From positions 5,056,001-5,120,000 of the forward strand of contig OZ245742.1 in NCBI GenBank assembly GCA_965227295.1: 64,000 nt of DNA, written 5' to 3'. Both the position numbers and the translations under genes were made by a program. Positions 6,657 to 64,000 of this stretch are shown here, one piece after another; the stretch's first letter is position 1; each line of letters starts with the position of its first letter. The notes beneath the pieces were generated by a model that worked only from the letters and a program-made list of their open reading frames with translations, did no database searches and was not told the DNA's origin. This DNA comes from Leptonemataceae bacterium. GTDB lineage: Bacteria; Spirochaetota; Leptospiria; Leptospirales; Leptonemataceae.

Positions 6657-7184
6657 TTATGCGGATCGGACTTCGCCGTTTTCGTACGTGAGAGTCGGCA
6701 CGCGTGAAGCGATGTCGCGCATAAACGCTTCTTTATCGACGGGGGATAGTAAGATGAATCCGATACCGCCGCGATTGTGTTCTACTTTCAGGCGATCGAT
6801 CGACAACGCCGGTGACGACAGGAGATTGCGGCTCGGTTTGATTGCAGTAACGGCGGATAGTTCCAGCCGCGTGCGGATGAGGCCGAAGCGGATGATGATG
6901 TGCGTGTCGGTTATCGTGTAACGCACCGGCCACACGAGCACGACGATCAACAGGACCGTGAACGCGCCGCTGGCGAGGAGTGTCGCGGCGGCGCCGGTGT
7001 TGGTGCTCCACTGCGCGGCTCCGGCGATCATGCCGGCCACGCCGCCGAGGACGAGGAGCAGGATCAACGCGCCGATCCAGTGGTCGACGCGGGAGGGGTA
7101 GTCTTTCGCGGGCATGGGGTGATGGTAAGATGGGCGGTTTGGGTTGGCAAGTGGGATGTTTAGTAATCTCTCTTCATTGGGCAA
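6657..7184 (-). CDS. Bacterial PH-domain membrane protein (bPH_5-like); start may be 7115
   Basis: YPSRVD.W, two TM segments, RYTITDTHIIIRFG, SSPALSIDRL, LSPVDKEAF. Confidence 0.8.
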   Translation of the reverse strand: MPNEERLLNIPLANPNRPSYHHPMPAKDYPSRVDHWIGALILLLVLGGVAGMIAGAAQWSTNTGAAATLLASGAFTVLLIVVLVWPVRYTITDTHIIIRFGLIRTRLELSAVTAIKPSRNLLSSPALSIDRLKVEHNRGGIGFILLSPVDKEAFMRDIASRVPTLTYENGEVRSA

Positions 7185-7719: not shown

Positions 7720-10700
7720 TGCATCCGCCTACTATGGAATTCAGTAATGGAATTACACTCTACTCCGTAAAGCTTATTACACCTCCTTAGATCGATACGC
7801 GGGGGATAGAAGAATTCAGAACGAATACTATTCGTTCTACGAATAGCCGCATCTTCAAATGGGCCAACTTCGCTCTGAGATGTAGGTACATTGCCAGTAT
7901 TAATTTGAAGAGCATGTACTAATTCATGGGCAACTACGCCAGCTAAGTTTGCATCTACTAGTGAGTCTCCTGGCCCTACATATCTGATATCGCCATCTCG
8001 TAGCGAAGGGTTGATACCAATTTGAGCAGTCATGATTCCGGGATAACCAACATAAGTACGAGACCTGGTCCAAGGGTGCTTTGCTTCACTGGGTATTAAA
8101 CTGAAACCACCGGTCTCATGCACTTGCATTACTAGCTTTCTACCCGACGGCACTGACATCAACTTTCCAATCTCTCCCATTATGCGATCTTTGAATCCCT
8201 TTCCGTCATCAGTAATATACTTGCTCACAGAAGCATACGAGTTGGCAATTTTACCAAAATCGTCTCTCGAAATTATCTCCGAAAATGGAAATTTCCGCGA
8301 GAGGACCTCAGGTTTTAACTCCTCCTGAAGCAACTCCATGGCTTCCTTAGAGAAAACCTGGTAGTTTCCAAACGGCTCACGTCGTATTTCCGCACTGTTC
8401 CAGGTTGTGCGCAGGCGCTGCATCCGGGATTGTGAAATTATTTGAGCTTCATCTTTAATTGCATCGAAATTCGTGTAATAATCCTCTCGATCGACTTCCG
8501 CGAATACATCATCAGGCAGGACCAAGAACTTCCCGAACGATTCAACCGCATAGGGACCGTATTTTTCCTTAAGTTCTTGTGCCCGTTTGTCTCCATTTAA
8601 GCCCGCATCTCGGGTCTTTACTTCTGGATCCCCTCCAGCTTCGCCATCTTCACCACCAGTCTCACCACCACCACCAGTCTCACCACCACCGGCAGTCTCT
8701 TCACCGCCGCTCGTCGCATCGCCATCGCCGGTCTCTCCACCGCTCGTCTCACCGCCGGGCACTTCTTCCCCGCCGGCCACATCGTCATCATCACTGCCGA
8801 TCAAATCACTGATATCTTCCCCGGCCTGCTCCGCGGCGTTGCCGAGCACGCTCGCCACGTTACCCGCCTGGCCGAGCGGAGAATCTTCGCCGAGCGGAGG
8901 GTCCTCGCCCCACTTCGTCGGATCCATCGCCCAGTCTTTCAGATCGTTCAATTGATCGCCGACGGCGTTGAGGTACGGCGACGAGAACCCGTCCGCCTCG
9001 TTGTAATCGACCAGGTCGTATCCACCGCCGCTGACCGCGCCGGTAAAACCGTTCTGCGAATCATAACCGACGCCGAGATCCAGGCCGGCGTAACTTCCCG
9101 TAAACGAACCATCCACCTGATCGCCGTCGACACTGACGTCGAAGCCGTTACCGGTGACATCGCCGTGAAACGTTCCGCCGGTGAAGTCCACCGTGCCGTC
9201 GACGCCGAAACCCGAGCCGCCCAGGTTCGAGGCGTCCACGCCGAACTGCGACGCTAACTCATTCGCATCTCCGGTTAAGCTCAGGCCGCCCGGACCGTAA
9301 CCCGCGTCCAGACCGTAGCCGGAAGCGCTGCCGGTAAAACCGGTCTCCGAATTGTAGGCAAGATCCGCGTCAATGCCCGCAAACGAACCGCTGAACGCGG
9401 CGTCGCCGGTAAAGCCGCCGCCCATAAAATCATACGTACCGTTCACGCCGAGGCCGGAGCCGCCCAGGTTCGAAGCGTCCAGGCCGAACTGTGAAGCGAC
9501 CTGGCCGACATCGGCCGAGAGCGACAGCCCGCCGGGACCATAACCCGCGTCCAGGCCGTAGCCGGACGCATCCATCGAAAAGCCCGTGTTCGAATTCCAA
9601 CCGGCATCGAGGTCAAAGCCGCCGTACGAAATCGTATTCAGGCCCAGGTCGAGGCCGCCCTCCTGACTGTAGCTTAAGTCTCCGTGTTCAGAACTTAAGC
9701 CGGCGCTCAGTCCCTCGCTGGAGGAGTAGCCGATCTTCCCGCCGAAGTCGTCACCCAGGAACGAGGTATCCACGCCGAACTGATCGGCCACGGAAGCGAC
9801 GTCGGCGCTCACGCCCCAGTCGCCGTTGTTGTAGTTCGCTTCGACGCCGTAGGCCGAGGCGTCGGCGGTGAGCCCGCCGTTCTGCGAGTAGTTCACGTTG
9901 AGGTTCGCATCTTCGCCGCCCAACGACAGACTGCCGCCGAAGCCGTTCTCCTGATCGTAACTTAAATCCACCCAATCGTTGGAAAAGCCCGCCGAGAAAC
10001 CGTCGCTCGCGTTGTAATCTAAATCCAGGCCCCAATCGTCTCCGCCCAGATTTGCCCCGGCGGACAGGCCGCCGTCCTCCGAATAATTGATGCCGAAGTT
10101 ACCTATGTCGCCGCCGTACCCTAACGACGCACCGAAACCGTCCTCGCTATGATAACTCACCCCCGCCGAGAATCCGCCGTACTCCAGGCCCGCGGACACA
10201 CCTGTCCCGCCGTGCTCCGAATGGCTGACGGTAACTCGCGCCGGTCCGTAGCCGACACCAACGGAACCGCCAAAGCCGTCCTCCGGCGAATACGAGAGCC
10301 CCACACTCACGGCACCGCCGGTCATCGTTTGCACGTAACCGTTCGCGATACCGCCGACCGCGCCGACGAGGGCGCCCTGTAGACCGCCGCCACTGTTGTA
10401 CGCCTGGTAGGCTCCGTTGATCGCGCCGGCAACCATCAGCGAAGCACCGCCGGTAAACGGCGCGGCGATCACACCCACCGCCGTAATCACCCCGCTCACC
10501 GCGGCCTGGGTCTTCGCTTTCTTCGCGGCTTCTTTCGCTTTCTGGTGCTGCACGAACATCGACGTGAAGCCGGCCGGCAGACCCAGGGCCTGGTCGAGGG
10601 CGGACATCATCTGTCCTTCGGCGTAACTTTGAATGGCCTCGTGAGGTTTCGAGCCGCCCAGGATGGCGCTGATGATCGAAGGCGGAATACCCCAGGCTTC

Positions 10701-13412
10701 GCCGAGGATGGCGCCGGCCTGAGAACGCATTTCACTGGCCAGGGCCTCGCCGAAACTCGCGCCCTGCAACATGGCCTTCGCCAGGGTCTGGATGAGCTTC
10801 GCCTGTTCGACCTGATTCGAAACGTTTTGCTGATACGCCTTTTCGGTGGCGCGGGCGATCTTGTTCGCGTCAGTGATCTGCTCCTGGACGGACTTCATCT
10901 TGTCGCCCAGGTTCTCGTTGAATTGATTGAACGCGTCGCTGAATTGCGAACCGACGCCGCCGTAGTCCCAGGCGTCGAAGACGTCGCCGCCCGAGGCGAG
11001 ACGCACGGCATCCGGCGGCAGGATCGTTACGGTTTGATCCATCATCTCGCGGTCGTAAGCGTCGCGACTGGTGGCGTCGCCGCCGTTGTAACTTGCAACC
11101 CCGGAAGCGATCTTGCGCTTCATGGTTACGGTGCCGTCTTCGGCAACGACGACTTCGAAGCCCTCGTCCGTATGCTTCTTGCGCTCCTCGACCATCTTCT
11201 TTTGCAGTTCGGTTTGCAGACGATCAAACTCGGCCTGATCGAAGGCCGTGTAAAACTTGAGTTCGCCCTCCACCTCGCCGTCGCGCAGTTGCGCCAGTTC
11301 AGCCAGGCGATCTTCTTCTTCGAAGTGCGCGCGATTCGTCATGAACGAGATCTCCCCGTCCTGGCTGCGCGCATGATCGGCGATGCGTTCGATGGCCTGG
11401 TCCCGCGCGTCGTTGGCGCGTTCGTGCATGGCTTGAGCATAGCTCAGGTTCTTCACGCCCGTCGTGGCTTTGCCGAAGCTCTTGAGCAGATTCTCGAGCG
11501 TGGCCGAATCGACGCCGCCGCCCTCGCGGTTGAAGTCCGTGGAGATGCCGCCCAGGCGCCGCTTCGCGTCTTCCATCTGCGCGCTGACCGCGCTGTTCGA
11601 AAGACCGGAGTTGATTAAGTGATCTTGAATGCGATTTAGTGCGCGATCCGTGCGCGCGTCGAGTTGCCGCTCCAGATTGCGAATGCGATTGTCCACGGCG
11701 GCGGCGTTGCCGTCGTTTTTGGCCTGATCCTCGGCGCGGATGAGGCCGGCCCATTGCTGCCGGCCCTGGCGAAACAGGCGATCCATTTGGGATGCGTAGG
11801 CATTGCGGCGGGTGAGGATCTCGTCCCGGCTGGCCTCGTAAGCAGCGGTGGCGGAAGCACGGATGCCCACGGCCTCGTTTTGAAAGTTCGCGTAGTTTTG
11901 TTCGTATTCGGCGACCTGATCTTCCCAGGCTTCGATGGCCGGCAGGAGATTGTTGCGCCAGTCGAGGGCGATGGGGCTCAGCGCGTCGACGTAAGATTGG
12001 TGCGTGAGTTCGTTTTGATGCGCGTCCTCGTCCCACCAGTAGGCCTGGCCGTGGATCTGCATCCGTTCTTCGGCGTAACCGCCGGCTCCGAAGGGTGCGT
12101 TGAAGTTCCACAGGCAAATGGGCAGTCCGTAGGCCCCGCCGCATCCGGCTGCATCGAACGTAAACGCGCCGTTGCCCGCCGAACTGAAACATTCATTGGT
12201 GCGCGCTTCCCCGATTTGTAGAATGCCGTAGACATTGTGACTGGAACTGTAGCCGCAAACGTTCACGCCGCCGGTGATGCTCGTCACGGTCTTGCCGAAC
12301 TTCGCCGAAAGCTGGCCGATGAGCGGCGCCTGGTTGCTTCCGCCCGATTCCATGTACAGGGCGATGGCGTTGATCATGGCGTTGGAACGCCAGTCGTAAC
12401 CGTGACCGCCGCCCCATACGGTCTCCCCGCCCAGATTCACGTAACCGTCTTTGATGCTGTTGTAGTAATCGACGGTTTGTTCTTCGACGAGCTGCTTCGA
12501 TTCCAGCTCCGTCGTCATCGTTAATGTAAGATCGGAGAGCGGTACGTTGTTGTCGAGATCGCTCTTGAGCTGATTGATGAACGCCTCGAAGTCCAGGCCG
12601 GCCTGGTTGTACACGCCCGGGGAAGAATAGAACATGCCGCTGTTGCTGAGCAGGTTTTCCATGCTCTGCACGGCGGTACCGATGGCGTCGCGCACGGTTT
12701 TTTCGTAGGCCTCGATCTGGGCGAGAGACTGCGCGAACTCGGCCTCTTTCGCGTTCAGTTCAGCGAGGGTTTCTTTGTACTCGTTCTCCAGGTTCTGCAT
12801 GGCCTCGCCCAGGTCGGCGATGCCGGCGTTGGCCTGCTCCTGCATCTTGCGTTCCCAATCGGCGTAGGCCTCGCGCGCGTCGCCGGAGCCGCTGCCGGCG
12901 GGTACGTCGTTCGCGGCCGCGGCGGCCTGGCTGTCCCGTCGAGTGTCGGTGGCCGTAAGGTACACCGAGCGTTCATTAGCAACCGCGGCCAGGGCGGCGG
13001 ATTCCCAATCGGCCCGGGCCTTCGCTTTCTGGATCTCCAGTTCTTTGCGCAGATAGTCCTGGTACTCGGCGACGCTGTTGAAGGCGTCGGAACTGCTGAC
13101 GCTCAGGACCTCGTTCTGGATCGTGGTGTCGACCTGGGCCTCCCAGCTGGCGGAGAGCGTGTAGAGACCGGACGCCACGACCGACTGCCATTCGGCGGTG
13201 GTGGGCGCATTGCGGGCCTGCTCGAAATAAGGATCGAGGGCGTTGTCGTTGAACGTGGGTGTCGTGATGTTCGGAACCGGCACCTGCTGGGCGCTCAGTG
13301 GCCCCACGGGAATCGCCGTGCTTACCGTGAAGGTTACGGTGGCGATCCAGGTAACGATTGTTCGGCGACGGCGCGCCCAAATGCCGTTGCGCGAGGCGAA
13401 TGCTGCTTCCAT
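7716..13412 (-). CDS. Giant secreted polymorphic toxin 1 (TIGR04388-like, subfamily A) with C-terminal HExxH (M91-like) metallopeptidase
   Basis: RRRR plus hydrophobic signal peptide; DAFNSVAEYQDYLRKEL motif; coiled coils; AAPFTGGASL helices; Gly-rich beta repeats; acidic linker; VAHELVHALQ...EDAAIRRTNSIRSE. Confidence 0.8.
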   Translation of the reverse strand: MEAAFASRNGIWARRRRTIVTWIATVTFTVSTAIPVGPLSAQQVPVPNITTPTFNDNALDPYFEQARNAPTTAEWQSVVASGLYTLSASWEAQVDTTIQNEVLSVSSSDAFNSVAEYQDYLRKELEIQKAKARADWESAALAAVANERSVYLTATDTRRDSQAAAAANDVPAGSGSGDAREAYADWERKMQEQANAGIADLGEAMQNLENEYKETLAELNAKEAEFAQSLAQIEAYEKTVRDAIGTAVQSMENLLSNSGMFYSSPGVYNQAGLDFEAFINQLKSDLDNNVPLSDLTLTMTTELESKQLVEEQTVDYYNSIKDGYVNLGGETVWGGGHGYDWRSNAMINAIALYMESGGSNQAPLIGQLSAKFGKTVTSITGGVNVCGYSSSHNVYGILQIGEARTNECFSSAGNGAFTFDAAGCGGAYGLPICLWNFNAPFGAGGYAEERMQIHGQAYWWDEDAHQNELTHQSYVDALSPIALDWRNNLLPAIEAWEDQVAEYEQNYANFQNEAVGIRASATAAYEASRDEILTRRNAYASQMDRLFRQGRQQWAGLIRAEDQAKNDGNAAAVDNRIRNLERQLDARTDRALNRIQDHLINSGLSNSAVSAQMEDAKRRLGGISTDFNREGGGVDSATLENLLKSFGKATTGVKNLSYAQAMHERANDARDQAIERIADHARSQDGEISFMTNRAHFEEEDRLAELAQLRDGEVEGELKFYTAFDQAEFDRLQTELQKKMVEERKKHTDEGFEVVVAEDGTVTMKRKIASGVASYNGGDATSRDAYDREMMDQTVTILPPDAVRLASGGDVFDAWDYGGVGSQFSDAFNQFNENLGDKMKSVQEQITDANKIARATEKAYQQNVSNQVEQAKLIQTLAKAMLQGASFGEALASEMRSQAGAILGEAWGIPPSIISAILGGSKPHEAIQSYAEGQMMSALDQALGLPAGFTSMFVQHQKAKEAAKKAKTQAAVSGVITAVGVIAAPFTGGASLMVAGAINGAYQAYNSGGGLQGALVGAVGGIANGYVQTMTGGAVSVGLSYSPEDGFGGSVGVGYGPARVTVSHSEHGGTGVSAGLEYGGFSAGVSYHSEDGFGASLGYGGDIGNFGINYSEDGGLSAGANLGGDDWGLDLDYNASDGFSAGFSNDWVDLSYDQENGFGGSLSLGGEDANLNVNYSQNGGLTADASAYGVEANYNNGDWGVSADVASVADQFGVDTSFLGDDFGGKIGYSSSEGLSAGLSSEHGDLSYSQEGGLDLGLNTISYGGFDLDAGWNSNTGFSMDASGYGLDAGYGPGGLSLSADVGQVASQFGLDASNLGGSGLGVNGTYDFMGGGFTGDAAFSGSFAGIDADLAYNSETGFTGSASGYGLDAGYGPGGLSLTGDANELASQFGVDASNLGGSGFGVDGTVDFTGGTFHGDVTGNGFDVSVDGDQVDGSFTGSYAGLDLGVGYDSQNGFTGAVSGGGYDLVDYNEADGFSSPYLNAVGDQLNDLKDWAMDPTKWGEDPPLGEDSPLGQAGNVASVLGNAAEQAGEDISDLIGSDDDDVAGGEEVPGGETSGGETGDGDATSGGEETAGGGETGGGGETGGEDGEAGGDPEVKTRDAGLNGDKRAQELKEKYGPYAVESFGKFLVLPDDVFAEVDREDYYTNFDAIKDEAQIISQSRMQRLRTTWNSAEIRREPFGNYQVFSKEAMELLQEELKPEVLSRKFPFSEIISRDDFGKIANSYASVSKYITDDGKGFKDRIMGEIGKLMSVPSGRKLVMQVHETGGFSLIPSEAKHPWTRSRTYVGYPGIMTAQIGINPSLRDGDIRYVGPGDSLVDANLAGVVAHELVHALQINTGNVPTSQSEVGPFEDAAIRRTNSIRSEFFYPPRIDLRRCNKLYGVECNSITEFHSRRMQ
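9160..9640 (-). repeat. Internal tandem duplication (243-nt / 81-aa period) in toxin 1
   Basis: GYGLDAGYGPGGLSL...ASQFG.DASNLGGSG occurs twice (gagccgcccaggttcga at 9214 and 9457) but only once in toxin 2; boundaries approximate. Confidence 0.8.
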
Positions 13413-13699: not shown

Positions 13700-14338
13700 C
13701 TAGAAGACGCGGCGTTCATCCTTTACCTTTGCGCGATCCAGGCGCGCCTCGCTTTCCAGGAAGTTCAGACTGTCCGTCGCCGACCCCAGAATGGCGCGAA
13801 CGGCGGCAACCAGGTTCCCGGACTCTGTCTCAACGACCAGGGCTCCGTAACAGCCCCAGAGGTCGTAGCGGGCCGGATTTAGATCGGAGTTGAGCCTGAG
13901 GATTCTGACACCCTCTATGCACCGGCCGATGTATGCACGCAATGGATCGGCCAGAAACTCCGGATGCTCGCGCGCTGTTACGACGACCGGGCCGCTGATC
14001 ATGGATTCTTTCTGGAGGGTCGCCAGCATGCCTTCATCCAATTCGGATGCATAAACTGTGTCGACGTTCATATCCCCAAGAAATCCGATACGGCGGCCGT
14101 CATCCAATATTAGAAGCCCGATTCCGCCCCCGATCCCGATGAACTCGTCCGGTCGCTTGCCGCGAGCACCGTCCTGAAAGTTACGGAGGACTTCCGGCAG
14201 TTGTGCCGCGGAGGCGCTCCGCATCAATGCGCGACCAAAGTCAACGATCCTGCAACCACGCAAGGTTGTGAGCAATTCGTTCGCGTGATCGAGGCGCGAC
14301 CAGCCTAATTCTTGCCAGCGAGTCGAGAGCCTGGGCAT
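13700..14338 (-). CDS. Putative immunity protein (family shared with 41308 and 62971)
   Basis: Starts 6 nt after the toxin 2 stop; motifs LRGCRIVDFGR, GGGIGLLILDDG, AREHPEF...YIGRCIEGVRIL shared with the two paralogs. Confidence 0.75.
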   Translation of the reverse strand: MPRLSTRWQELGWSRLDHANELLTTLRGCRIVDFGRALMRSASAAQLPEVLRNFQDGARGKRPDEFIGIGGGIGLLILDDGRRIGFLGDMNVDTVYASELDEGMLATLQKESMISGPVVVTAREHPEFLADPLRAYIGRCIEGVRILRLNSDLNPARYDLWGCYGALVVETESGNLVAAVRAILGSATDSLNFLESEARLDRAKVKDERRVF

Positions 14339-14343
14339 AGGAA

Positions 14344-17300
14344 TTAACCGGAAAGCGCCTCAATCCATTCGTCGATTAGTTCTAGATTATCCGTCGGCTT
14401 AAAATCCTCGGGCAGCCGTACCACGGCTTTCTTTTCCGCGTTCAGCAACGGATCCATAACATAGAAAACGCCGGTCTCCGGATCAATCATACCCTGCAGA
14501 TCGTTGATATAATAATCTTCAGAAAACTTGCGCAACTGTTTGAACTGGCCGATCAACCCTTCGACTTTTTCTCTGCCGCCCGGTTTGCTCAGGAGCTGTT
14601 TTCTGTAGCGCTCCAGGCGTTCCACGAAATTCGGACCTGTACTTTTCGAGTGCAACTCAAGCCCGAAAGCCGGGTCCTTCGGAATATGCTTCATCAGGTA
14701 GCCCTCTGTTTTTGTGCCGCCAGGCGCCGTCATCTTTCCGGTCGCAGAATGAGGAATGACCCGAACTCCGTAATCCTTCATTTGCTTCAAACCGACAACC
14801 TCGTCTCTGACAAACGAAAGGCTTGCCTGATTTTTGGCAAAGCCTACGGCAATTTCACTATCGTTCCTGGTTGCATGAACGGTCTTGAAATCACCGTGCC
14901 CGATCGGCTCAGGATCTACGGTGATATTCTGGCCCCTTAAGGCCGTGAGCCGGGAATGAAAATCCTTCCAGGCTTCTTCCGCAACCTGATTGGCACGCCT
15001 GACCCCGGCCAACTCGCCCGGGGTCAGGTGCGCGGTGTAAGAATCAAAACCGGAATCATGCCCGTCTACTTGCCTGCGCTTCTTTATCTCTGCTTCCCGG
15101 AGACGCGCCTTTTCCGCCGCATCAAGCCGGGATCGACGCAGCGAAGATGTAACGTCCACGTCCGCGCGACGCGCGATGCGCAGAGCGAGCTCATCAAATC
15201 CGAAGACCGCCGCGACAGGCAGAGCACTGAAAGCGACTTCCGAAGCCACGATTGCGCCAGCCTTAAGATGGTTGCCTTGCTTCCATTCGCGTACAACTTC
15301 GAAAAAGGCTTGTACCTGACTTGTGCCCGGTAAAACGCTGAGAGCAAGATTATCTATGAACGCCGCTCCTTGCTCGGTCAGAGAATACGCGTAGATTGCG
15401 TCCAGGTTGGGCGGGGGGCCCAGGCTTTGCCGTATCGCATCGATCGCTCCTTTCAATTGATGAACGGTTTCTATACTGAAATCACGTTCGATCTGATCGT
15501 ACGCCGCGTTCAACGTCTTCAGTGTCGTCTGAAGCAACGTCCTGGTTTTGTTCTCCTCGGTAAGAGGCTCTTGCAGATAGTTTCGATAGTCTCCAGTTCC
15601 TTGCCATTTGCGGATTACTTCCACCGGATCATGGCAGGCAGCGGCATCGCAATAGTGGTACTGATTCGCCCAGGGAAGTCGGCTTTCGGTCGGCCGCTCC
15701 TGGAGTCCGAGGGCGGCAATGGCCCTTGCGAGGGCGACAGGATTCTCGGCGATTTTCTCCGGGTCGCGTTCTTTGTTACGAATGGTTCCCTCTTGAATCA
15801 GGGCTTCGTCTTCCTGTCGGGCCTGCCGCTCTTCCTCGGGCGTGAGTTTTGTGATAATCGGTTGAACACGATTGCCGGCGGCGTCCAGGAAACGCGTCTC
15901 GTAACCACCTCCCGAAAAAATGGATTGATAAGTCTTTTCTTCGACGATTCCGTCGGGACGAATATAAATCCTTACAGTTTCCCCTTCCGAATTTGTCCTT
16001 TCGTAGTAGCCGCCTTCCTTCGCCCACTTTTGCCCGAAGAGAAACAGAGGGTCATTTTTGCGCAATGCGGCGGCGGTATTCTGATCGAAGCCGCGTGCCT
16101 CGCCCCGGGGACCGGCGAAACCGCGCAACAAAGCGCGCTGTCCTTCGGCGTCCCAATATTTTTCCTGAAGATATTCGCGATAATCGGATCCGCCTTCCGG
16201 CGCGCGCCAGATCTCCTGACGAAGCAGACCTGTTTCCTCGTAGGTGAAACGCATTTTGCGTCCGTCCCATAGTTCGCCCTCGTAGTAGTAATGGTTCCGC
16301 GCTTCGTCCCGGTGTGCGGTGAACAGAACTTGCTGACCGTCCACGTTGAATGTCCGCACCGCTTTTTTGTATTGAATATCGGACTTATCGAAGGGAGCGG
16401 CCGCGGTCATCCCATCGCCAGGTCCGCCGCGTTCATTGATGACGATGCCTTCGCCGCCTCGCGCCTTCACTTCTTTCACCAGCACGACGCGATGTAAGTC
16501 TTCCTTCTCGATGGTGATGCGTTTGCCACCCGGCATCGCCAGACGAATCATCACTTGATCTTGACCTTCGATCGCGCCGTAATGGACCGTCCCGTCCTTC
16601 ATACGAACGACCACCGGGACGTCGCGATCATAGCCCCGCAGGCGATCGATTTGATACCTCAGATCGTCGTGCTGCTTCTCTTCCATGGCCGCACGTTCGG
16701 CGAGCAGCGCCTTGCGCGCCTTCAGGTCCGACGGGTCGCGGCGATCCCAACGCTGCTGCCATTCCTGACGCTGCTCCAGATAGTCCGCGCTGACTTCGGC
16801 CACGGTCTTCTCAATGCGATCGCGCGGATCATTTTCGTCAAGTTCCACGTCTTCGTTCGCCGCGACGTTCGCCGCGTGCTTGCTTAACATGGACTCAGCA
16901 GAACTTTGCAATTGGTCGTCCGCGCGTTTCGTTTCGTACGTCACGTTCCAGCGCAGGACATCACCGGCGTCGAAGCAGATGTTCTTGTTCTTCGCACAGA
17001 TCGTTTTATCACCCTGCCATTCGATTTCCGCCGCCAGGTTGTCCTCCGCGGAGAAGTCGTTCGGATACTGATTCAGCAGGAGCTTCGCGAAGTAGCCCTC
17101 GACCTTCTTCTGACGCCGCAGGTCTTCCGCGGACGGGAAGGCCGTGGTATTCGCGCGGAACGTACCTTTGAGCTCCCATTCCTCGAAGTCCGGCAACGTA
17201 TCTTCCATGGCGTCCGGCGGTGCGATGTAGACCTTCATGTCCGGAAGATCTTCGCTCCGTTCCGCCACGGCTTCGCCGGATCCCTGGCCGCCGCCGGCCG

Positions 17301-20300
17301 TCGGCTCTCCTTCGCCGCCGGGACCGATGGCGATGCCACCTTCTTCGCTTTCACCGTTTTCGTTGCCGTCGGGACGTTCGCCGTCCGGCCACTCTTCTCC
17401 GCCGGCGACTTCGCTTTCTTCTTCATCGCCGCCGAAGTTCTCTTCCCACCAATTGCTGAGATCTTCTCCGGCCGTATCGGCGGCGCCGCTCAGCACGGCC
17501 GCGACATCGTCGATCTGGCCCAGGGGCGTATCTTCGCCGAGGGGCGGGTCCTCGCCCCAGCGATCCGGGCTCGTGGCCCAGTCTTTTAAGTCTTCCAACT
17601 GATCTTCGATGCTGTCGAGGTACGGCGACGACAGGCCGTCCTGTTCGTTGTATTTGGCAAGATCGAAGCCGCCGCCACTGAGCGCGCCCGAAAAACCGTT
17701 CTCGGAATCGTAGCCGACGCCCAGGTCCAGGCCGCCGTAGCTGCCGGCGAACGAACCGTCCACCTGGTCGCCGTCGACGTCCACGTCGAAGCCGTTGCCC
17801 TGAACGTTGCCGGTGAATTGGCCTGCGGTGAAGTCGATCTCGCCGTCCACGCCGAAGCCCGAGCCGCCCAGGTCCGAGGCGTCCACGCCGAACTGCGACG
17901 CTAACTGATTCACATCGCCGGTTAAGCTCAGGCCGCCCGGGCCGTAGCCGGCGTCGAGGCCGTAGCCCGAGGCATCCACGGAAAAGCCGCTGTTCGAATT
18001 CCAGCCGGCGTCGACGTCGACGCCCCCGAAAGAAATCGTATTCAGATCGATGCCGAGGCCGCCTGCCTCGCTGTAATTTAAGTTTCCGTACTCGGAACTT
18101 AAGCCGGTCGTCAGTCCCTCGCCGGAGGTGTAGCCGATGGTGCCGTCAAAGTCATCGCCGAGGAAAGACGTGTCCACTCCCGCGGACTCCGCCAGCTCGC
18201 CGACGTCGGCGTTCAGGCCCCAGTCACCGTTGTTGTAGTTCGCCTCGACGCCGTACCCGGAGAAGCCCGCCGTCAGTCCGCCGTCGCCGTAGTTGAGTTC
18301 CAGGGCGGCAGAGTCGTCGTCGCCCCAGGAGTACGAGGCACCGAAACCGTCCTCTTCGTTATAACTTAAGTCCAGGCCGCCGTTGGTATAACCCGCCGAG
18401 AAACCGTCATTCTCGCTGTAGTTTAAGTTGAGTCCTTCGTCATCGTCACCGAGTTTCAGGCCGGCGGATAGCCCTTCGTTCTCGGAATAGTTGATGCCAA
18501 GGCTGCCGAAATCATGGCCGTAGCCGACCGAAGCCCCAAAGCCGTCCTGGGTATTGTAGCTCACGCCCGCCTTGAAGCCGCCGTAACCGAGACCCGCGGA
18601 CACACCTGTCCCCCCGTGCTCCGAATGACTGACCGTCACTGTGGCCGGACCGTAGCCCACGCCGACGGAACCGCCGAAGCCGTTGTCCGGTGAATACGAC
18701 AGGCCCACGCTCACGGCGCCGCCGGTAGCCATCTGCACGAAGCCGTTGGCAATGCCGCCCACGGCACCGACCAGCGCGCCCTGCAAACCGCCGCCGTTGT
18801 TGACGCTCTGGTACGCACCGGCGACGGCGCCGGCGACGGCCAGTGATGCACCGGCGGTGAACGGGGCGGCAATGGCGCCGACTACCATGATGGCGCCGCT
18901 GACCACGGCCTGTTGTTTGGCCTTCTTCGCGGCTTTCTTCGCCTTCTGTTGTTGCGAGAACATCGACGTGGTGCCCGGCGGCAAACCCAACGCCGTATCG
19001 ATGGCCGACATGACCTGGCCTTCAATGTAACTGCCCACGGCCTCGTGGGGCTTCGCGCCGCCGAGGATCGCGCTGATGATCGACGGCGGAATGCCCGTCG
19101 CCTCGCCGATGATCTGCCCTGCCCGGGAACGCATCTCACTGGCCAGGGCCTGACCGAAACTCGCACCACCGAGCATGGCCTTCGCCAGCGACTCGACCAG
19201 TTGCGCCTGCTCTACATGGAACGAAACATTTTGTTGAAAGGTCTTTTCGTTTTCGCGGGCGAGTTTGTTCGCGTCATCGATCTGCTGCTTTGCAGATTGC
19301 AGCTTGTCGCCCAGGCTTTGATTGTACTCGTTGAAGGATTCGCTGAAGTCGCCGCCAAGACCGCCGAGATCCCAGGCATCGAAGACGTCGCCGCCGGAAA
19401 GCAGTTCCATGGCGTCCGGTGGGAGGATCGTTACGGTCTGGTCCTCCATCTCACGCTCGTAGGAATCGCTGTCCGTGGCGGCCCCGCCGGTGTAGTTCGC
19501 CTGGCCCGAGGCGATCTTGCGCTTCATGGTTACCGCGCCGGTCTTCGGGTCCACGACGACCTCGAAGCCCTCGTCCTTATGCTTCTTGCGTTCTTCGGCT
19601 AACTTTTTCTGAAGTTCAGTTTGCAGACGATCAAACTCGGCCTGATCAAAGGCCGTGTAGTACTTGAGTTCGCCGTCGACCTCGTCGTCCCGCAGTTGTG
19701 CCAGCTCGGCCAGGCGCTTTTCTTCTTCAAAGCGCTCGCGGTTCGTGAGAAAGGAAATCTCACCGTCCTGCCGGTTCGCAAGATCGGCCACGCGCTCGAT
19801 GGCGTTGTCCCGGGCATCCTTCGCGCGCTCGTGCATGGACCGGGCGTAGCTGAGATTCTTAACACCCGTGGTGGCCTGGTAGAAACTCTGAAGCAAGTTC
19901 TCCAGGGCCGTCGCATCCACGCCGCCGCCGGCACGGTTAAAGTCCGCGGAGATCGCATCGAGGCGGCGTTGCGCGTCCAGCATCTGCGCGCTCACCGCGC
20001 TCGCAGACAGACCCGACGTACCAAGCTGTCGTTCGATTCGATCCATGGCGCGAGCGGTACTTGCATCCAGTTGCTGCTGGAGATTTCGAATGTGTGTTTG
20101 CGCCGCAGCGGAGCCTTCGTTCTGCGCCTGCTCTTCCGCGCTGATCAGGGCCGCCCATTGCCCGCGCCCCTCGCGATAGACACGGTCCATCTGCGCGGCA
20201 TAGGCGTTGCGCCGGGCCAGGATCTCGTCCCGGCCGGCCTCGTACGCCGCCGTGGCCGAAGCGCGGATGCCCACGGCCTCGGTCTGAAAGTTCGCGTAGT

Positions 20301-39471: not shown

Positions 39472-40353
39472 TTAGCGGCCGCGCATTTCCCGCAATCGCC
39501 CCTGCGCGTCCTGAATCTGCTGCGTCATCTTCGGCGGCACGCGGCGCAGAAACTCTTCGAGGTTCGCCACGGCGGCGCCTTTCTTCGCTAACTTCTGCTG
39601 AACGATTCCTAAGTTGAGATAGGCCTCGAAACGATCCGGCGTGAGCCGAATGACGCGCTGATAATCCTGCTCCGCGAGTCCCAGGGCCCCCGTCTGTTGA
39701 TGCACGACGCCCAGGTTGTAATGCGCGTTGGCGTAGTTCGGATCGATCTGCAACGCGCGGCGCAACGTTCGCTCCGCCGCTTCGCGATCTCCGAGCCCGA
39801 GGTACGCCGTGGCCAGGTTCGTTTCAATGTCCGCGTTCTCTTTCAAGGCCGCAGCGTTTTCAAAGTGGCGCGCCGCCTCTTCGTAACGGCCGGCGTTGTA
39901 GTAAATGAGGCCGGCGTAAGCCTGGGCGTCGAAGTAGTCTTTGTTGATGCTGATCGCTTTGAGGAACGCCGCAAGGGCCGGCTCGTAATCGCTCGCCGAG
40001 TAAAACGCGAGGCCCATATTGTAATGATACATCGCTTCGCCCGGGCGCAACTCTACGGCCTTCTGAAAAAACTCCACCGCCTTCGGGATCTCCCCCATGC
40101 GCAGATAACTCATGCCGATGTTGTTCGGATACTCCGCGTTTTCCGGGTCGACCTCGTGGGCTTCGAGAAAGTGCGGCAACGAACGCACGAAGGCGGCCTG
40201 TTGAAAATGCGCGAGGCCGGTTTCGTTTGCGGCTTCGGCCCGAGCGCGGGCCGTGTCCGAGACCGTGGGGGAGCAGGCTGCGAGGGTCGACAGCGAAACG
40301 GACAGCAGGATCGCGAGAATTTTTTTGCGGGGTGCCATGCTCATATCCTTCAA
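39472..40353 (-). CDS. TPR-repeat lipoprotein (paralog group A)
   Basis: Lipobox LAAC; EYPNNIG, MYHYNMGL, HYNLGV, YLNLGIVQ. Confidence 0.9.
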   Translation of the reverse strand: MKDMSMAPRKKILAILLSVSLSTLAACSPTVSDTARARAEAANETGLAHFQQAAFVRSLPHFLEAHEVDPENAEYPNNIGMSYLRMGEIPKAVEFFQKAVELRPGEAMYHYNMGLAFYSASDYEPALAAFLKAISINKDYFDAQAYAGLIYYNAGRYEEAARHFENAAALKENADIETNLATAYLGLGDREAAERTLRRALQIDPNYANAHYNLGVVHQQTGALGLAEQDYQRVIRLTPDRFEAYLNLGIVQQKLAKKGAAVANLEEFLRRVPPKMTQQIQDAQGRLREMRGR

Positions 40354-41345
40354 GGAGTCGAGCGTTCTTCGCCCTCGATCAGCGAACCGTTTTGAAACGT
40401 TCCCGACTTTTGCGTTCCGTCCTTGAACGTCAACGTGCCGCTGCCGTGGAACTCGCCGTTCTGGAATTCGCCTTCGTAGCGCAGATAACTTACGAATTCG
40501 GACGGATATAGCATGATGCCGGAACCGGTCTGTTCTCCTTCGACGAACGTTCCGACGTACTTGCGGCCGTCGCTGTAGATGTAGGTACCCTCACCGTGCG
40601 GAATACCGTCTGCCAGGCGGCCGATGTAAACGTCCCCGCGATTAAACTGCTCGTCGCCGTACGCTAAGACGCCGTCATACATCGCACCGTCGCGCCATTC
40701 GCCGACGAAGCGTTGCCCGTCGCGCCAGACCATCATTCCACGACCGTGCATCTGGTTGTTCTTGAATTCGCCGGAGTACCGGAACTCGAACGGATCTTCG
40801 GATCCTTCCAGTGCACGTTCGTAAAAGCCGTAGCCCTCGAATCGATTTTCGCGCATCTGTCCCAGGTAATAACGCCCGTCGCCCGGATGCCGGAACTCGC
40901 CGTAGCCGTGGCGCTGACTGCCCTGCCATTCGCCGATGTAGTACTGGCCGGTATTCGCGCCGCCGAATTCGTAGCGCCCGAAGCCCTCGGACTGGTTGTC
41001 CTGGAACTGGCCGGTGTACGTACTCTGCGTGGCCGCCTGGCTTTGTTCGCCGTAGCCGTCCTTGTAACCGCCGGAAAACTCGCCGGTGTAGATGTCCTTC
41101 TCGGCGTCGATGTATCGGCCGTAGTACATCTCGCCGTCCACGAAGGTGCCGTGGAACTTCTGCCCGCCGCGGAAATCCATGTCGCCCACGCCGTTTTCGC
41201 AGTTGCCGGCGGTGCAGCGGCCGGGGGCCGGGGAGCAGTGGGAGACGGCGAGCAGCGTGCAGAAGGCACGGCAAAGCAGGCCCAGCCCGTCCCGATTCAC
41301 CCGACGATTAAGCAAGATGGACCCGCCGATCAAACCGTTGCTCAT
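40350..41345 (-). CDS. MORN-repeat lipoprotein (start may be GTG at 41300)
   Basis: C..GNCENG.G followed by repeated Y.G.(F/W)..G..(H/D)G.G. Confidence 0.85.
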   Translation of the reverse strand: MSNGLIGGSILLNRRVNRDGLGLLCRAFCTLLAVSHCSPAPGRCTAGNCENGVGDMDFRGGQKFHGTFVDGEMYYGRYIDAEKDIYTGEFSGGYKDGYGEQSQAATQSTYTGQFQDNQSEGFGRYEFGGANTGQYYIGEWQGSQRHGYGEFRHPGDGRYYLGQMRENRFEGYGFYERALEGSEDPFEFRYSGEFKNNQMHGRGMMVWRDGQRFVGEWRDGAMYDGVLAYGDEQFNRGDVYIGRLADGIPHGEGTYIYSDGRKYVGTFVEGEQTGSGIMLYPSEFVSYLRYEGEFQNGEFHGSGTLTFKDGTQKSGTFQNGSLIEGEERSTP

Positions 41346-41940
41346 TCAGATTATCGTTGTCAAAGATAGGCAATCCGCCTGCCCCGTATTCCGGCGTGAT
41401 GTGTAATTCCAGATTCGGCGCCACCGCAAACATGGTCCCGGTGTCCAAGCGCGGACATATGCCAATCACACGCGATGGGCCACCCACAGCACGATCCTTT
41501 AAAAGAACCTCAAATCCGACAAAGGTAGACCCGATAATTCCTTGAACGATAGCGTCCGCATATTCCGGACTGGATACGGCAGAAACACTGACCCAGTTCC
41601 AATCGTCAAAGTCCCCACCGAGAGTCGTCGGATCATCGGGAGGTGGCGGGCCGATACTTCCCATCAACTGCTCGTTGATCTTATCCCCCGCGATGCAAAA
41701 ATAGGAGCCGTCGCCTCCCAACTGAAACGAAAGGAAACCGACGCCGCGGGCAATAAGAGCCCCGGCAGGAAAGCCGTAGCCGTCTTCCTGGTATTTCTTT
41801 ACAATTTCCGCAGGCACGGCAGGGCCGACCGTGCGTATATGTCTCACAACGTCCACGATGGTCCTGCCGACGAGGCTTCCCGGGGAAGGGCGCAACTCAC
41901 TCAGGGGAGTCCATGTAAATTTCGACGGTTGAACACTCAT
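41308..41940 (-). CDS. Putative immunity protein (family shared with 13700 and 62971)
   Basis: Likely start MSVQP 8 nt after the toxin 4 stop; LVGRTIVDVVR, LIARGVGFLSF, SSPEYADAIVQGIIG. Confidence 0.75.
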   Translation of the reverse strand: MSVQPSKFTWTPLSELRPSPGSLVGRTIVDVVRHIRTVGPAVPAEIVKKYQEDGYGFPAGALIARGVGFLSFQLGGDGSYFCIAGDKINEQLMGSIGPPPPDDPTTLGGDFDDWNWVSVSAVSSPEYADAIVQGIIGSTFVGFEVLLKDRAVGGPSRVIGICPRLDTGTMFAVAPNLELHITPEYGAGGLPIFDNDNLNEQRFDRRVHLA

Positions 41941-41947: not shown

Positions 41948-44900
41948 CTACTTGCTCGACGGAATTGCATTAATGAGACGCTGGATTTGCTCCAATGCGT
42001 CGCTGTTTTTGACACCCTCGTCTACCGTCGAAGGATCGATGAGTGTCACGCTTCCGGTCTTTACGTCGACCATAATCTGCGGATCCCCCACGCTGATCGG
42101 TGGGATACCGTTATCAGGATCTCCGCGCAGAAACTTGTGCAATTCCTTCAGTTTTTTCCGGGTCTTGTCGCGCATGGCGGGCGGCGCATCCGGAGCTTCC
42201 TTCTTGATCTTCGAGAAATCGGTCTTACAGTTGTGTCCCTTCAGCTTACGCATGAGCACACCGTAACCCTCCTCTCCTCTGCCGATGTTTTCCATTCGAC
42301 GAACTTCACTCGCGTCGACAATATCAACCTTCGCCCCCCGGGCCGCCTTGAGATTCTGGAGTTCCTTGAGTCTCCTCACCATCCCACGTAAGGCGTCCGG
42401 GTTGCGCGGATCCAGCGGTCGGGCGAGGACGACATCGTTTATGGGCTTGCCCGTCTTACGATCGAACAGGTCGTAGATCTGTTTTTCGTCGCCTTTCGCA
42501 CCATTGCGTGCCTCGCGTTTAATATCATGGGTCTCAAGTTTATCCCACGTTTTTTGGAAGCGGCGAAGGTACGACTTTAGACCGCATGCGAGACAGTCAT
42601 CCGCATCGTTGTCATTGTGCACCAACCACGCCGCGTCACCCGCGAAGTAGTTATGATCGCCCTCGACCTCGATGTTGAAGATCGGCTCGCTGCGTTTTAG
42701 TTGCCGCGTTTCAATACTCGTAATCGCCGCGAGTTCACCGTCCACCGGACGCAGGCGATCGCCGACCTTCAGGTCTTTCGCCGCGACCCACTCCCCGCGC
42801 TCCTCGATCCAGAACGGGTGGTTGTCGGTAGCGGTGATGGAGTCCTGGCCGACACGAATGTCGTACCAAACGATAGTGATGTCCCGGAAAAGCTGCGTAA
42901 CCTTGCGTTCGGTCGCTTTACCGGTCGCGGTATCGAAGGCGAGCACTGAATCACCGATGGCCAGATCTTCAATGTTTACCCGACCATCCGGCGTGAGTAC
43001 CGGCGTTCCGGAGGGCAGACATTTGGTACAGACGGAACATGCTGCCAGGCCGATCTTATCGAGTTTGTCTTTGCTCTTGCGTGACGCCCCGGCGACCAAC
43101 TTATCCAGGGCCTTCTTGCTCTGCTTCCCGATCATGTCGCCGACTTTCGTGCCGCTTGCCAGGTCAAAACCCGCAAGAGCGATGCCCAGGTAGTCGGGCT
43201 TACGAACGGCAACGATAAGGTCCGCCGCGGCGATAAAACGACCGAGCCCCGGCACAAAGCTGGCCACGGTTCCCATCGCCGGGTCTCCGCCGGCCTCGGA
43301 AATCGCCTCGGCAAACTTAAAAAACTCCTCTATGTGAAAGTCGCCGGTAACCAGAGCAACGGCCGCCTCTTTCACATTCGAGAGCTTATCACCCGCCTCA
43401 TTGATGAGACCCAGGGCGATCTCTCTGGCAGTGTCGAGGTACTGATCAAGCAGGCCCTGTTCCCGATCTTCGTCATTCGTATGTTCCAGGCCGGGCTGTT
43501 CTTTTTTCATGGCGGCTTCGAGTTCCGCCGCGTAACGTTGTTTGATTATCTCCTTCGCCGCCTTGCGCCGCATCAGCGCGGCCTGGGCGCGTTTCTCCTG
43601 GGCGTCGCGGTACTCCTTGCCGGACTCATACTCCGTCAGCCACTCGGACACCCACTCGTCCGGCGTCTTCGCCTCACCGTTCGCAGTGACCCACTTCGTA
43701 GGTTTACCGGGAACGACCTTTAGAATGCTCTCGGGCGATTGAGACGAGGGTCGACCGCTCAGTTCCACTCGCAGTGCGTTCAGCGCACGATTGTAGACGG
43801 CGTCGTTGTAGTCGCGCTTACCCGCATCGAGGCCTTCTTCCAGGGCCTTCGCGGAACCACCGTTGAGATTCAGCTCCGGATCCGGGATCCCATCCAGGCA
43901 CTGGACCTGCGATTCGCCTGTAAGATTAATGCATTTGTCGATCGCCGCTTTACGTTCGCTGCGGCTGTCGCCGGTGAGCTTTGCCTGCTCGGATACGAAC
44001 TGCTGACCGACCGGAGAATTCGCCATCCAGTAACCGACGAACTCTTCTTTGGTCAGCTTGAGCATGCCGCCCGTGTCGCCTCCCCCCAGGTCGATCGGCT
44101 TGATATTCTCGCAGACGATGTAATCGCCTTCCGCGTAGACCTTCCTGTTGTCGCTGTTCAGAGCCGATCCCGTCTTTTCCCAGGGAATCTGCTTCTCTAC
44201 ATTCGATAGTTCCCCATCGAACACAACGTTGTACATCGCCTCGGTAAACGAACCGTCGCGATTTACGTAAGCCGGATCCGCGATGGGAAAGGTAACGCGT
44301 TTCTCGCTCGTGCGATCCCATCCCGAGGCTACTCCCGGGGGATCCCAGATCGAAGCCGTGCCTCCCATATCTCGCGAACGCGCGCTATCGAGGTTGCCCG
44401 TGAGCAGACTGAGCGTATCCTGTTCGCCCATAACGGAATTCAGTAACGCCGGATCGAGTTCGATGCCGGTCAGGTCACCGATTTCCTCTGCAATAGAGGC
44501 GAGTAATTCTTCCTCGTTGATATCGTAGGTAAAACCGTCTTCGTCCAGGCCGGCGGTAATGCCGTGTCCGGACAGCCCCGCACCGAAGCCGTTCTCGGTA
44601 TCGTAACCGCCGCTCAGATCGAAGCCGTTCACGCTGCCGCTGGTACCGATCGAGGCGTTGCCGTTGGAATCGGCGCCGGCGTTAACATTCACACCGTCGA
44701 TGTTACCGCTGACGTCACCGGAGACGGTGCCGTTGCCGTCCACACCCGCGTTGACATTGACGCCGTCGATATTCCCGCTGACGCCGCCGGACACGTTGCC
44801 GTTCGAATCCACGCCGGCATTCACGTCGATCGCATTGCCGTCCGGATCTTCTCCCGAAATGCTCGTGGAAACATTGCCATTGGAATCGCCGCTGACACTC

Positions 44901-61978: not shown

Positions 61979-62974
61979 TCATGGGGAGGCGGAGACGGGA
62001 ACGCCGGATTCGATTTTCATTTGCTCGCCGCCGCTGTCCACGATGATGCCGTCGTGTTGCTCGCCGTTTTGAAACGTACCTTCGAAACGACGACCGTCGG
62101 CGTAGTAGAGGGTACCGGGGCCGGAGAAGACGTCGTCCGCAAAGGAACCCTCGTAGCGCAGGAAGTCCGGGTCGTCGCCGCGGTAGTGCATAACGCCCTG
62201 GCCTTCGAACTTACCGTACACGAACTCGCCGACGTAGCGTCGACCGTCCGCGAATAGATACGTGCCCTTGCCGTGAAACTTGCCTTCTACGATGGGCCCG
62301 ATGTACTTTTCGCCGATCAAACCTTCGAGGCGCTGGTACGAGTGCACGCCGTACACGCGCTCACCTTCTTTGAACTCGCCCATAAACGTATCCCCTTCCG
62401 GCCAGAGTAAGACGCCTTTGCCGTGGAACTTGCCGTTCTTGAATTCGCCGAAGTACTTGTATTGAAACTCTTTACCGGTGCTTTCCACGACACGCTCCGC
62501 GTATCCGTAACCGTTGAGATCGTCGTCGATGTGTTCGGCGATGTACGTGCGGCCGTCGGGTATCGTCAGCACGCCAAGGCCGATGCGATCGTCCTCTTTC
62601 CACTCGCCGGTGTACTGTTGCCCTTTGAACTGCCCGCCGGTGTAGGTGTACGTGCCGTGACCGTCGTAGTGACCGTTGTCGAAGTTGCCGGTGTAGCGGC
62701 CGTTTTCAATTTCGTACGTCCCCTGGCCGTGGCGGCGGTCGTAGAGCCACTGACCTTTGTAGTAGGCGCCGTCTTTATAGCGCATCTCGCCGAAGCCGCT
62801 GCGCTCGCCGTTCAGGAACTGCCCTGTGTAGGTGCCCGTGAGGAGTTTCATCGTGCCGGTGCCGTTCGTGCACTTTCCGGACGTGCAGACGCCGGGGGTG
62901 AGTTCGGGGGCGGGCGTGCAGGTGAGGAGGGTGAGGGTGAGTGCTATGAATGATGGAACAAGGGATTGGCTCAT
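61979..62974 (-). CDS. MORN-repeat lipoprotein
   Basis: Likely start MSQSLV overlapping the upstream stop (ATGA); lipobox LLTC; CTSGKCTNG; MORN repeats. Confidence 0.85.
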   Translation of the reverse strand: MSQSLVPSFIALTLTLLTCTPAPELTPGVCTSGKCTNGTGTMKLLTGTYTGQFLNGERSGFGEMRYKDGAYYKGQWLYDRRHGQGTYEIENGRYTGNFDNGHYDGHGTYTYTGGQFKGQQYTGEWKEDDRIGLGVLTIPDGRTYIAEHIDDDLNGYGYAERVVESTGKEFQYKYFGEFKNGKFHGKGVLLWPEGDTFMGEFKEGERVYGVHSYQRLEGLIGEKYIGPIVEGKFHGKGTYLFADGRRYVGEFVYGKFEGQGVMHYRGDDPDFLRYEGSFADDVFSGPGTLYYADGRRFEGTFQNGEQHDGIIVDSGGEQMKIESGVPVSASP

Positions 62975-63624
62975 AGTTCGATGACTTCTTCGATAATGGA
63001 GGTGTCGAGGCGGGAGGAGTCGATGAGGTAGAAATTCGTCCCCACCGATTCCTGGTCGTTGTTCATGGCGAAGCCGATGACAATCGAGTGCCCGTGCTCG
63101 AATTCTAATTGTACGCCCCCCCAGCGATCCGGGCGGCCAGTGTATTTCTTGATTCGCTGAGTTCGCAGCAATCTTCCATACAGGACTCTCTTCCCGACGC
63201 ACCTCTGGACCACGTCATTCGAAAGATCTGGATGCTCCCGTGTGTCTATGCAAAGATAGTTACCGCGGTCATTACGGAAATCACTTACAAAAGACTGACC
63301 CGCGTCGTGTACAAAGACATCGCCAAATTCACATCCATACGCAAAAGCAAGACCGGAATCATCCGATGCCGTGAGTATAATAATCCCCCCACTTTCGGCA
63401 ATCAGACTACTGACATCAAGACTCTGCCCGTAGAGACTTTGCTTGATGTCACGACTATACTCTATGAGTTCCTCAATAGTCAGATGGCCGCATGCCACAA
63501 AAGGCGCCACACGCACAACGCTTGTCACGACCTTCCCCTTAAATTCACGAATCAAATCAGAGGCACTCGCCGCGTCCCTCCAGTGGGGGCTGGCCAGAGT
63601 GCGATATCTTCGGCTCACGATCAT
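62971..63624 (-). CDS. Putative immunity protein (family shared with 13700 and 41308)
   Basis: ATGA overlap with the upstream kinase-like ORF; FKGKVVTSVVR, LIAESGGIIIL, TREHPDL...CVGKRV. Confidence 0.75.
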   Translation of the reverse strand: MIVSRRYRTLASPHWRDAASASDLIREFKGKVVTSVVRVAPFVACGHLTIEELIEYSRDIKQSLYGQSLDVSSLIAESGGIIILTASDDSGLAFAYGCEFGDVFVHDAGQSFVSDFRNDRGNYLCIDTREHPDLSNDVVQRCVGKRVLYGRLLRTQRIKKYTGRPDRWGGVQLEFEHGHSIVIGFAMNNDQESVGTNFYLIDSSRLDTSIIEEVIEL

Positions 63625-64000
63625 TGGCTATCCTTCAGCGTGATCCCCTGTGCCTCTGCCGCAGCGAGCACCTGCCTGATCATTGAATTTAGCTCTTCTA
63701 AGGACTTCTCCTTTCCCCCAGGTGTTTTAACCAATCCGTCGATATCATCAAGGTAAAAGTCGCCAGTCTTATAGTCAACGATACCTTCAAGATCTTCAAG
63801 ACCACCATGCTTCTCAATGAATAGCTTCAAGTCATCTAGTTGGTTCTTGAGGTTTTGCAGTTGCGTTTCTTTCATCTTGGTTAACAGCGTATGATAAAAC
63901 GTTCCCGCGCTTTCATCGAAGAAGCCCGCATCGCCGATGGCATCGGTGGATACCGCATTGGGAACCTTCTTTTTCAGAAACGCGATACAGTCTCCTGTCG
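63621..64000 (-). CDS. 3' end of a fifth kinase-tipped toxin (5' part outside the window)
   Basis: Frame is open to the window edge: ...CIAFLKKKVP...LKNQLDDLKLFIEKHGGLEDLEGIVDYKTGDFYLDD, aligning with the tips of toxins 2 and 4. Confidence 0.7.
   Translation of the reverse strand, partial: TGDCIAFLKKKVPNAVSTDAIGDAGFFDESAGTFYHTLLTKMKETQLQNLKNQLDDLKLFIEKHGGLEDLEGIVDYKTGDFYLDDIDGLVKTPGGKEKSLEELNSMIRQVLAAAEAQGITLKDSQ

Follow-up and report, generated by a model that had tools for sequence, protein, structure and literature searches.

Highly diverged small proteins encoded behind HopBF1-like kinase tips of giant proteins in a Leptonemataceae bacterium: a probable immunity family

The stretch of DNA analysed here, referred to below as the window, comprises 64,000 nucleotides (G000:C1:5056001-5120000) of the genome of a Leptonemataceae bacterium (G000), which consists of a single contig of 5.94 Mb. 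Five giant genes lie on the minus strand of the window. Four of them are complete (7716-13412, 14344-21909, 31454-37699 and 41948-49828) and the fifth leaves the window from position 63621. The products of the four complete genes matched the family TIGR04388, "Lepto_longest", with 273-331 bits at a curated cut-off of 45. A PT-HINT pretoxin domain was detected by Pfam in two giants (31454-37699 and 41948-49828). Directly behind three of the giants, and on the same strand, lie small open reading frames for proteins of 212, 210 and 217 amino acids, exactly where the original prediction had placed them (Table 1). It had described them as an apparently unnamed immunity family of three diverged paralogs, each following a kinase-like C-terminal tip. 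The two partner giants other than P0004 and P0005 have a HINT-like sequence (C..GT..LTPDG ... LVHN) in their translation.

Table 1. Position of the small genes, their partner giants and tips, and the associated MORN-repeat genes. Positions refer to the window unless another sequence is named.
Feature	Position	Strand	Remarks
Family copy 1, P0001, 212 aa	13700..14338	-	ATG 5 nt past the stop codon of giant P0004
Family copy 2, 210 aa from ATG	41308..41940	-	ATG 7 nt past the stop codon of giant P0005
Family copy 3, P0003, 217 aa	62971..63624	-	ATG overlaps the TGA of giant P0008 (ATGA)
Family copy 4	G000:C1:131389-132039		Outside the window; separated by 9 nt from a giant whose tip is of the same kind
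Giant TIGR04388-family carrier P0004, 2521 aa	14344..21909	-	No Pfam PT-HINT
Giant TIGR04388-family carrier P0005, 2626 aa	41948..49828	-	PT-HINT at residues 2277-2405
HopBF1-like minimal kinase tip, last 220 aa of P0004 and stop codon	14344..15006	-	AF2, Foldseek, VIA, profile
HopBF1-like kinase tip of P0005, behind the PT-HINT domain	41948..42580	-	
Giant P0008 (2392 aa), C-terminal portion of its HopBF1-like tip	63621..64000	-	Gene continues past the end of the window
Gene for a lipoprotein-like MORN-repeat protein, immediately behind copy 2	40350..41345	-	
Gene for a lipoprotein-like MORN-repeat protein, immediately behind copy 3	61979..62974	-	Likely ATG overlaps the stop codon of copy 3 (ATGA)
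MORN-repeat gene	L004:2-982	-	
MORN-repeat gene	L013:10705-11658	+	

It is uncertain where copy 2 starts. Its open frame extends upstream to a GTG at 42015, overlapping the toxin gene, and the public gene call (P0009, 182 aa) has a more internal start. The ATG at 41940 is the more probable start in view of the family alignment, in which it retains the conserved Trp.

Two of the giants in the window carry tips of other kinds, and neither is followed by a member of the small-protein family, in agreement with the original prediction; other genes follow 7716-13412 and 31454-37699. The giant at 7716-13412 comes directly after copy 1 and has a metallopeptidase-like tip with an HExxH motif (HELVHALQ). 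The gene behind it (7174-7719, minus strand) encodes a protein of 181 aa with a lipoprotein-like signal, which may be a periplasmic immunity protein, and the next gene (6657-7184, minus strand) specifies a bPH_4 membrane protein. In the giant at 31454-37699 the PT-HINT domain is succeeded by a tip rich in glycine and by a long charged tail. There is no downstream gene on the same strand, the neighbour at 30772-31419 being a convergently oriented gene for a membrane protein. Two further neighbours of the giants may be leads to the surface delivery of these proteins. Upstream of P0004 a TPR protein is encoded (22109-22747, minus strand) whose matches include a Slam-type N-terminal TPR family, and an OmpL1-like porin gene (L013:2003-2956, plus strand) lies upstream of a related giant in another genome, G401, described below.

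The small proteins are very diverged homologues, with identities of 13-26%. BLASTP weakly related P0001 to P0002 (E 2e-4) and to P0003 (E 2e-5), and the comparison of P0002 with P0003 was not significant (E 0.19). The motifs that had been named for the family are all present in the alignment of the three window copies (A1): W13; L.G..I...GR, L.G..I...VR and F.G..V...VR; FIGIGGG, LIARGVG and LIAESGG; and EHPE, SSPE and EHPD, followed by IG..I. While the homology of the three paralogs held, their number had been underestimated. A profile of the window copies picked up a fourth copy outside the window, where it follows a giant that has PT-HINT-like sequence and a tip like those of the other partner giants. 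According to the profile search of the genome G000 possesses four family copies in all; it also has four tips, and every tip and copy pair is contiguous.

A profile of the four G000 copies (A3) was then scored against 1.84e9 representative proteins with a threshold of E <=1e-3. The 20 matches comprised the four copies themselves (P0001 with E 2.0e-79), three long proteins and 13 small ones. The long proteins (P0014, P0021 and P0025) were set aside as repeat or low-complexity matches, such as a YadA-stalk adhesin recognised in the Pfam scan. The small homologues are 148-224 aa long and scored between E 3.3e-10 and 7e-4; two of the 13 are truncated gene calls of copies whose full DNA was read. 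Across a 19-row alignment (A6) identity to P0001 is 13-22%. When all 17 members were scanned against Pfam-A (2025) at E <=1, no meaningful match was obtained, the best ones being to unrelated families at E >=0.019, and none of the 17 matched an immunity family of Pfam (Imm1-74, SUKH/SMI1_KNR4, SUFU-like and others). The three window copies had no match in NCBIfam 20.0. Word-indexed protein searches with A3, A4 and a tip alignment (A5) returned only sequences that were already known, and the ESM Atlas gave only unnamed clusters with low recognition for P0001. Judged by sequence comparison, the small proteins form a genuine and tiny family, and as had been predicted it is one without a name in the libraries searched.

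The last 200 or so residues of the four partner giants can be aligned with each other. Searches of the tips against Pfam and NCBIfam (six tips in NCBIfam) gave no family match and nothing meaningful. A seven-row tip profile (A7), compared with the sequences of the PDB, retrieved HopBF1 (8hoe_A, E 2e-5; 6pwd_A, E 2.7e-5). The sequences GAGSQKDVFH and IEDLQFLVDHNGHVLINDP of HopBF1 align with G.G..K.v(Y/F) and DLQG.vD..tG.f..DP of the tips. Two Asp columns are invariant in all seven rows and, read from the kinase fold, are putative catalytic or metal-binding residues. An AlphaFold2 model of the P0004 tip (pLDDT 82.1) likewise had HopBF1 as its best match in Foldseek (6pwg_A, E 6.9e-8, TM 0.53/0.64) and in VIA (6pwd_A, Z 13.7, rmsd 3.8, 163 of 176 residues; next row 9.9). 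Ordinary protein kinases, aminoglycoside phosphotransferases, OspG and NleH followed. OspG and NleH are minimal effector kinases too (OspG 4q5h_A, Z 9.3; NleH1 4lrj_A, Z 8.4; NleH2 in Foldseek, E 2.8e-4), but they scored clearly below HopBF1, and the tip profile had no sequence match to either. The kinase-like character originally ascribed to the tips was thus confirmed and sharpened: profile, Foldseek and VIA identify the partner tip as a HopBF1-family minimal kinase which has kept the Gly-loop/Lys and both Asp motifs.

According to the review PMC9950578, HopBF1 is an effector of the type III secretion system. It has a minimal kinase fold, phosphorylates HSP90 of eukaryotes and behaves like an HSP90 client. 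The fold of HopBF1 (PDB 6pwd, 6pwg and 8hoe) is shared with the partner tip and not with the small protein. There are also differences between HopBF1 and the tips. HopBF1 is free-standing, whereas the tips described here are the C-terminal cassette of TIGR04388 giants or, in one other genome, of a 587-aa protein. No immunity partner of HopBF1 is mentioned in the part of PMC9950578 that was available, whereas the tips have a dedicated downstream partner.

The association of tip and small gene was not confined to the source genome. In G401 the family member P0012 is encoded on NCBI MAG contig JANSYA010000006.1 and its gene starts at the base immediately after that of a giant; this TIGR04388-like giant of 2287 aa possesses HINT sequence and the same kind of tip (YVKDFQMMIDVKSGGLTIIDP). 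A further family fragment was found on a separate contig of G401. When 100 genomes around the G401 MAG were searched with the family profile, five gave a match. In G408 the carrier is not a giant but a protein of 587 aa ending in a HopBF1-like tip (DDFQGLLETSTGKFFINDP), directly behind which three family copies are arranged in tandem, the third with an internal TAA. In G427 the ATG of a family copy overlaps the stop codon of a tip remnant of about 70 aa (DDLQGILDPDTGKFYLSDPGE), so that the remnant (DDLQGILDPDTGKFYLSDP) ends within the start codon of the copy. Remnant and copy together are a displaced cassette, such as has been seen in other loci of polymorphic toxins. G430 has a full-length copy with no tip nearby, and in G290 (the same place as G483) only a C-terminal fragment of the family was found; the G430 copy and the two fragments are orphans. 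The genomic context could be read for four of the 13 remote homologues (G401, G408 twice and G427), the other nine being on short contigs.

Eight loci combine a full-length copy with upstream DNA that can be read, and in seven of them the copy comes immediately after a tip or the remnant of one. The reverse test gave the same picture. Tip profile searches led to four places in G000 and four in the 100 genomes around the G401 MAG; a match in G417 (E 1.3e-4) was dropped, the ORF there being unrelated and of low complexity, and each of the remaining seven, which are genuine, has a family copy right behind it. The adjacency to kinase-like tips on which the original prediction was based therefore holds beyond the source genome and also with a carrier protein of another type. 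A further 400 genomes, sampled evenly from the phylum and sharing at least one genome with the sample of 100, gave no match to the tip profile and only the G290 fragment with the family profile. Two metagenome scans with smaller tip alignments (A8 and A9) yielded no relative.

Where the kinase tip or its remnant is not part of a giant, an AAA+ ATPase gene lies beside it, at 3660-7726 of L023 (G408 C175) and at 9330-12391 of L022 (G427 C73). In G408 a gene for a LysM protein overlaps the start of the 587-aa toxin gene. Such surroundings are reminiscent of the loci of contractile injection systems, to which they may be related. Between the ATPase gene and the remnant cassette of G427 there are genes for proteins of 364 and 156 aa, which may be another toxin-immunity pair.

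It might be thought that the small gene is simply an unrelated conserved neighbour whose function has nothing to do with the tip. Such neighbours do occur here. In four of the five giant-linked loci the family copy is immediately followed by a gene for a MORN-repeat protein with a lipoprotein-like N-terminus, the exception being copy 1, which is followed by a giant, and this shows that conserved neighbours without an obvious toxin role are found at these loci. The MORN proteins, even those from different genomes, are 38-53% identical to the one encoded at 40350-41345 and are thus far more conserved than tip or putative immunity protein; the MORN protein may be an accessory factor or another immunity protein, or its gene may simply be part of a conserved flank. 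The small gene, however, diverges as fast as the tip, unlike the MORN gene. It is moreover present behind the 587-aa protein and behind the tip remnant, and absent behind the two TIGR04388 giants with other tips. Mere hitch-hiking is for these reasons extremely unlikely. Because the small gene is found behind the 587-aa protein and the remnant and is missing behind two sister giants, it follows the tip and not the carrier; in other words, the distribution of the genes indicates that the family tracks the tip rather than the delivery scaffold.

Parallel divergence of the partners was also looked for by a Mantel test of tip identity against partner identity in six pairs. The correlation was r = -0.03 (388 of 720 permutations were as high), and there is therefore no sequence sign of co-diversification, with an identity measure that is probably saturated at 13-30% identity.

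A second explanation is that the small protein is an accessory factor of the kinase tip, either a chaperone for its folding or export or an activator that stabilises the kinase until release. The gene adjoins the tip and looks translationally coupled to it. PMC9950578 likens HopBF1 to an HSP90 client in its behaviour, so that a minimal kinase might depend on a helper, and the producer G000 has no HSP90 match. Three tandem diverged copies behind a single tip are nevertheless what would be expected of immunity genes instead. Nor would a helper be expected to persist behind a truncated and surely inactive tip remnant, as in G427, or without any tip, as in G430. We therefore regard an accessory role as unlikely.

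An AlphaFold2 model of P0001, computed on the 19 sequences of A6, had a pLDDT of 87.1 and a pTM of 0.86, and all five models reached at least 85; that so few sequences gave a confident common fold also speaks for a genuine family. The predicted protein is beta-rich and contains one unit twice, with strands and helix at E30-37, H44-57, E73-78 and E83-89 in the first and at E140-149, H155-161, E164-171 and E174-179 in the second. A G..I..V motif occurring twice in each copy had been the reason for suggesting an internal duplication. The N-terminal and C-terminal halves of A6, compared by hhalign, aligned residues 18-90 with 128-183 over 55 columns, with a probability of 74% and a score of 29.9; the maximum of 21 controls (one reversed and 20 column-shuffled) was 11.1. 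The suggested duplication is thus supported by sequence as well as visible in the model.

Structural relatives of the small protein are less clear than those of the tip. Foldseek with the P0001 model found nothing better than E 0.1 in the PDB, and no PDB sequence matched the family profile with an E below 0.26. In a second structural search the top five rows were all NFACT-N domains (8aaf_a, Z 8.2, rmsd 3.6, 128 aa; 9gy4_Z, 8.2; 6pon_A, 7.5; 3doa_A, 6.1; 7ope_0, 5.3), with Z values of a size that is common among unmatched models. Eight of the next eleven rows were of the Fpg/Nei type (Z 4.1 to 2.7), and chains of this type were matched down to Z 2.5. The coherence of these rows as families suggests that the likeness in fold may be real, although the Z values are within the common range. 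The small protein may thus bear a moderate resemblance to NFACT-N and Fpg-N domains. Its nearest structural neighbours would then be the NFACT-N domain of Rqc2/NEMF/RqcH/FbpA-PavA and the N-terminal domain of Fpg/MutM/Nei. In contrast to these domains the small proteins stand alone, have about 210 aa and are linked to toxins, and no sequence signal connects them with either group.

The nature of these neighbours leads to a third explanation, namely that the small protein is an enzyme or a decoy, such as a phosphatase-like eraser or a pseudosubstrate, and not a tight-binding inhibitor. NFACT-N and Fpg-type domains (Z 8.2 to 2.5) bind nucleic acids or tRNA, which might provide a link to the substrate of the toxin. 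Against this, the structural Z falls in the range common for unmatched models, and none of the columns in the 19-row alignment is invariant, with Gly138 alone coming close. The same rows show no acidic, histidine or cysteine residues conserved in a manner fit for catalysis. Such a pattern suits a binding protein more than an enzyme, and an eraser or decoy is very unlikely. A feature common to all three explanations is that they fit poorly with the tandem array, with the copies that stand behind a dead remnant or alone, and with the absence of the family behind sister giants.

The family had been predicted to lack a signal peptide, and no hydrophobic N-terminus or membrane segment was detected by Kyte-Doolittle analysis of the 19 members: the 19-residue mean does not exceed 1.61 and the 12-residue mean in the first 31 aa does not exceed 1.29. 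By its sequence the family is thus one of cytoplasmic proteins without a signal peptide, in the compartment where a kinase toxin would be expected to act.

The proteins of about 210 aa are thus probably a new and very rare family of cytoplasmic immunity proteins, each of which neutralises the HopBF1-type tip encoded just upstream. They show hallmarks of immunity genes: extreme divergence, a tandem array, orphans, fragments, the lack of a signal peptide or membrane segment, and a single nearly invariant column, a glycine. The small protein would be co-translated with its toxin, because the genes are only 5-9 nt apart or share an ATGA. It would then bind the kinase tip one-to-one, both in the cytoplasm of the producer and in sibling cells to which the toxin is delivered, and in the bound state would block the ATP or the substrate site of the tip. 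Each of the diverged paralogs would protect only against its own tip.

Besides the Mantel test, two observations speak against immunity. One is that the full-length copy of G430 stands without a tip nearby. The other is that HopBF1 acts on eukaryotic HSP90, a role for which no immunity protein is needed. PF00183, the HSP90 family, had no match in G000, a genome that is 93.55% complete, and was matched in four control genomes. HtpG/HSP90 was therefore rejected as an unlikely self-target. If the producer is endangered by its own kinase at all, the target in this organism should be something other than HSP90.

The proposed immunity function would place the small proteins in a known kind of system. 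Immunity proteins of polymorphic toxins (the Imm and SUKH families of Zhang et al. 2012, PMC3482391; CdiI; RhsI) are encoded, as here, by a gene on the same strand directly 3' of the toxin tip. Further points of likeness are the extreme divergence, the tandem "poly-immunity" array, the orphans, the displaced cassette with a tip remnant and, in P0005, the PT-HINT domain that Pfam detects upstream of the tip. Orphan cassettes of toxin C-terminus and immunity gene are known from the CdiI and RhsI systems. Polymorphic toxins with immunity proteins are therefore not new as such; it is the putative immunity family which is new to the libraries searched. Toxins with a protein kinase fold and a dedicated immunity protein are hardly documented. 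In the available part of PMC3482391 the only kinase toxin is "Tox-Peptide Kinase", which is of the lantibiotic-synthetase type, occurs in Firmicutes and is listed with no immunity protein, and a HopBF1-type tip was not found there. A search of openly available full texts found no paper linking kinases of the HopBF1 type with either polymorphic toxins or immunity proteins.

If an immunity gene indeed stands behind a homologue of HopBF1, such kinases would be able to poison bacteria, and in a producer with no detectable HSP90 the immunity gene would point to another bacterial target. It is conceivable, if rather speculative, that HopBF1-type kinases are interbacterial toxins as well, with a target that is not HSP90, that their inhibitors are duplicated NFACT-N-like proteins, and that the plant-pathogen effector HopBF1 is a domesticated offshoot of such toxins. 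Were this so, the immunity proteins would be natural and highly specific inhibitors of the HopBF1-type kinase fold. The immunity function itself, if true, would already make the family a source of natural protein inhibitors for the minimal kinase fold. It would also mean that the TIGR04388 giants of Leptospira relatives are carriers of polymorphic toxins, and would thereby offer a handle on the function of these proteins.
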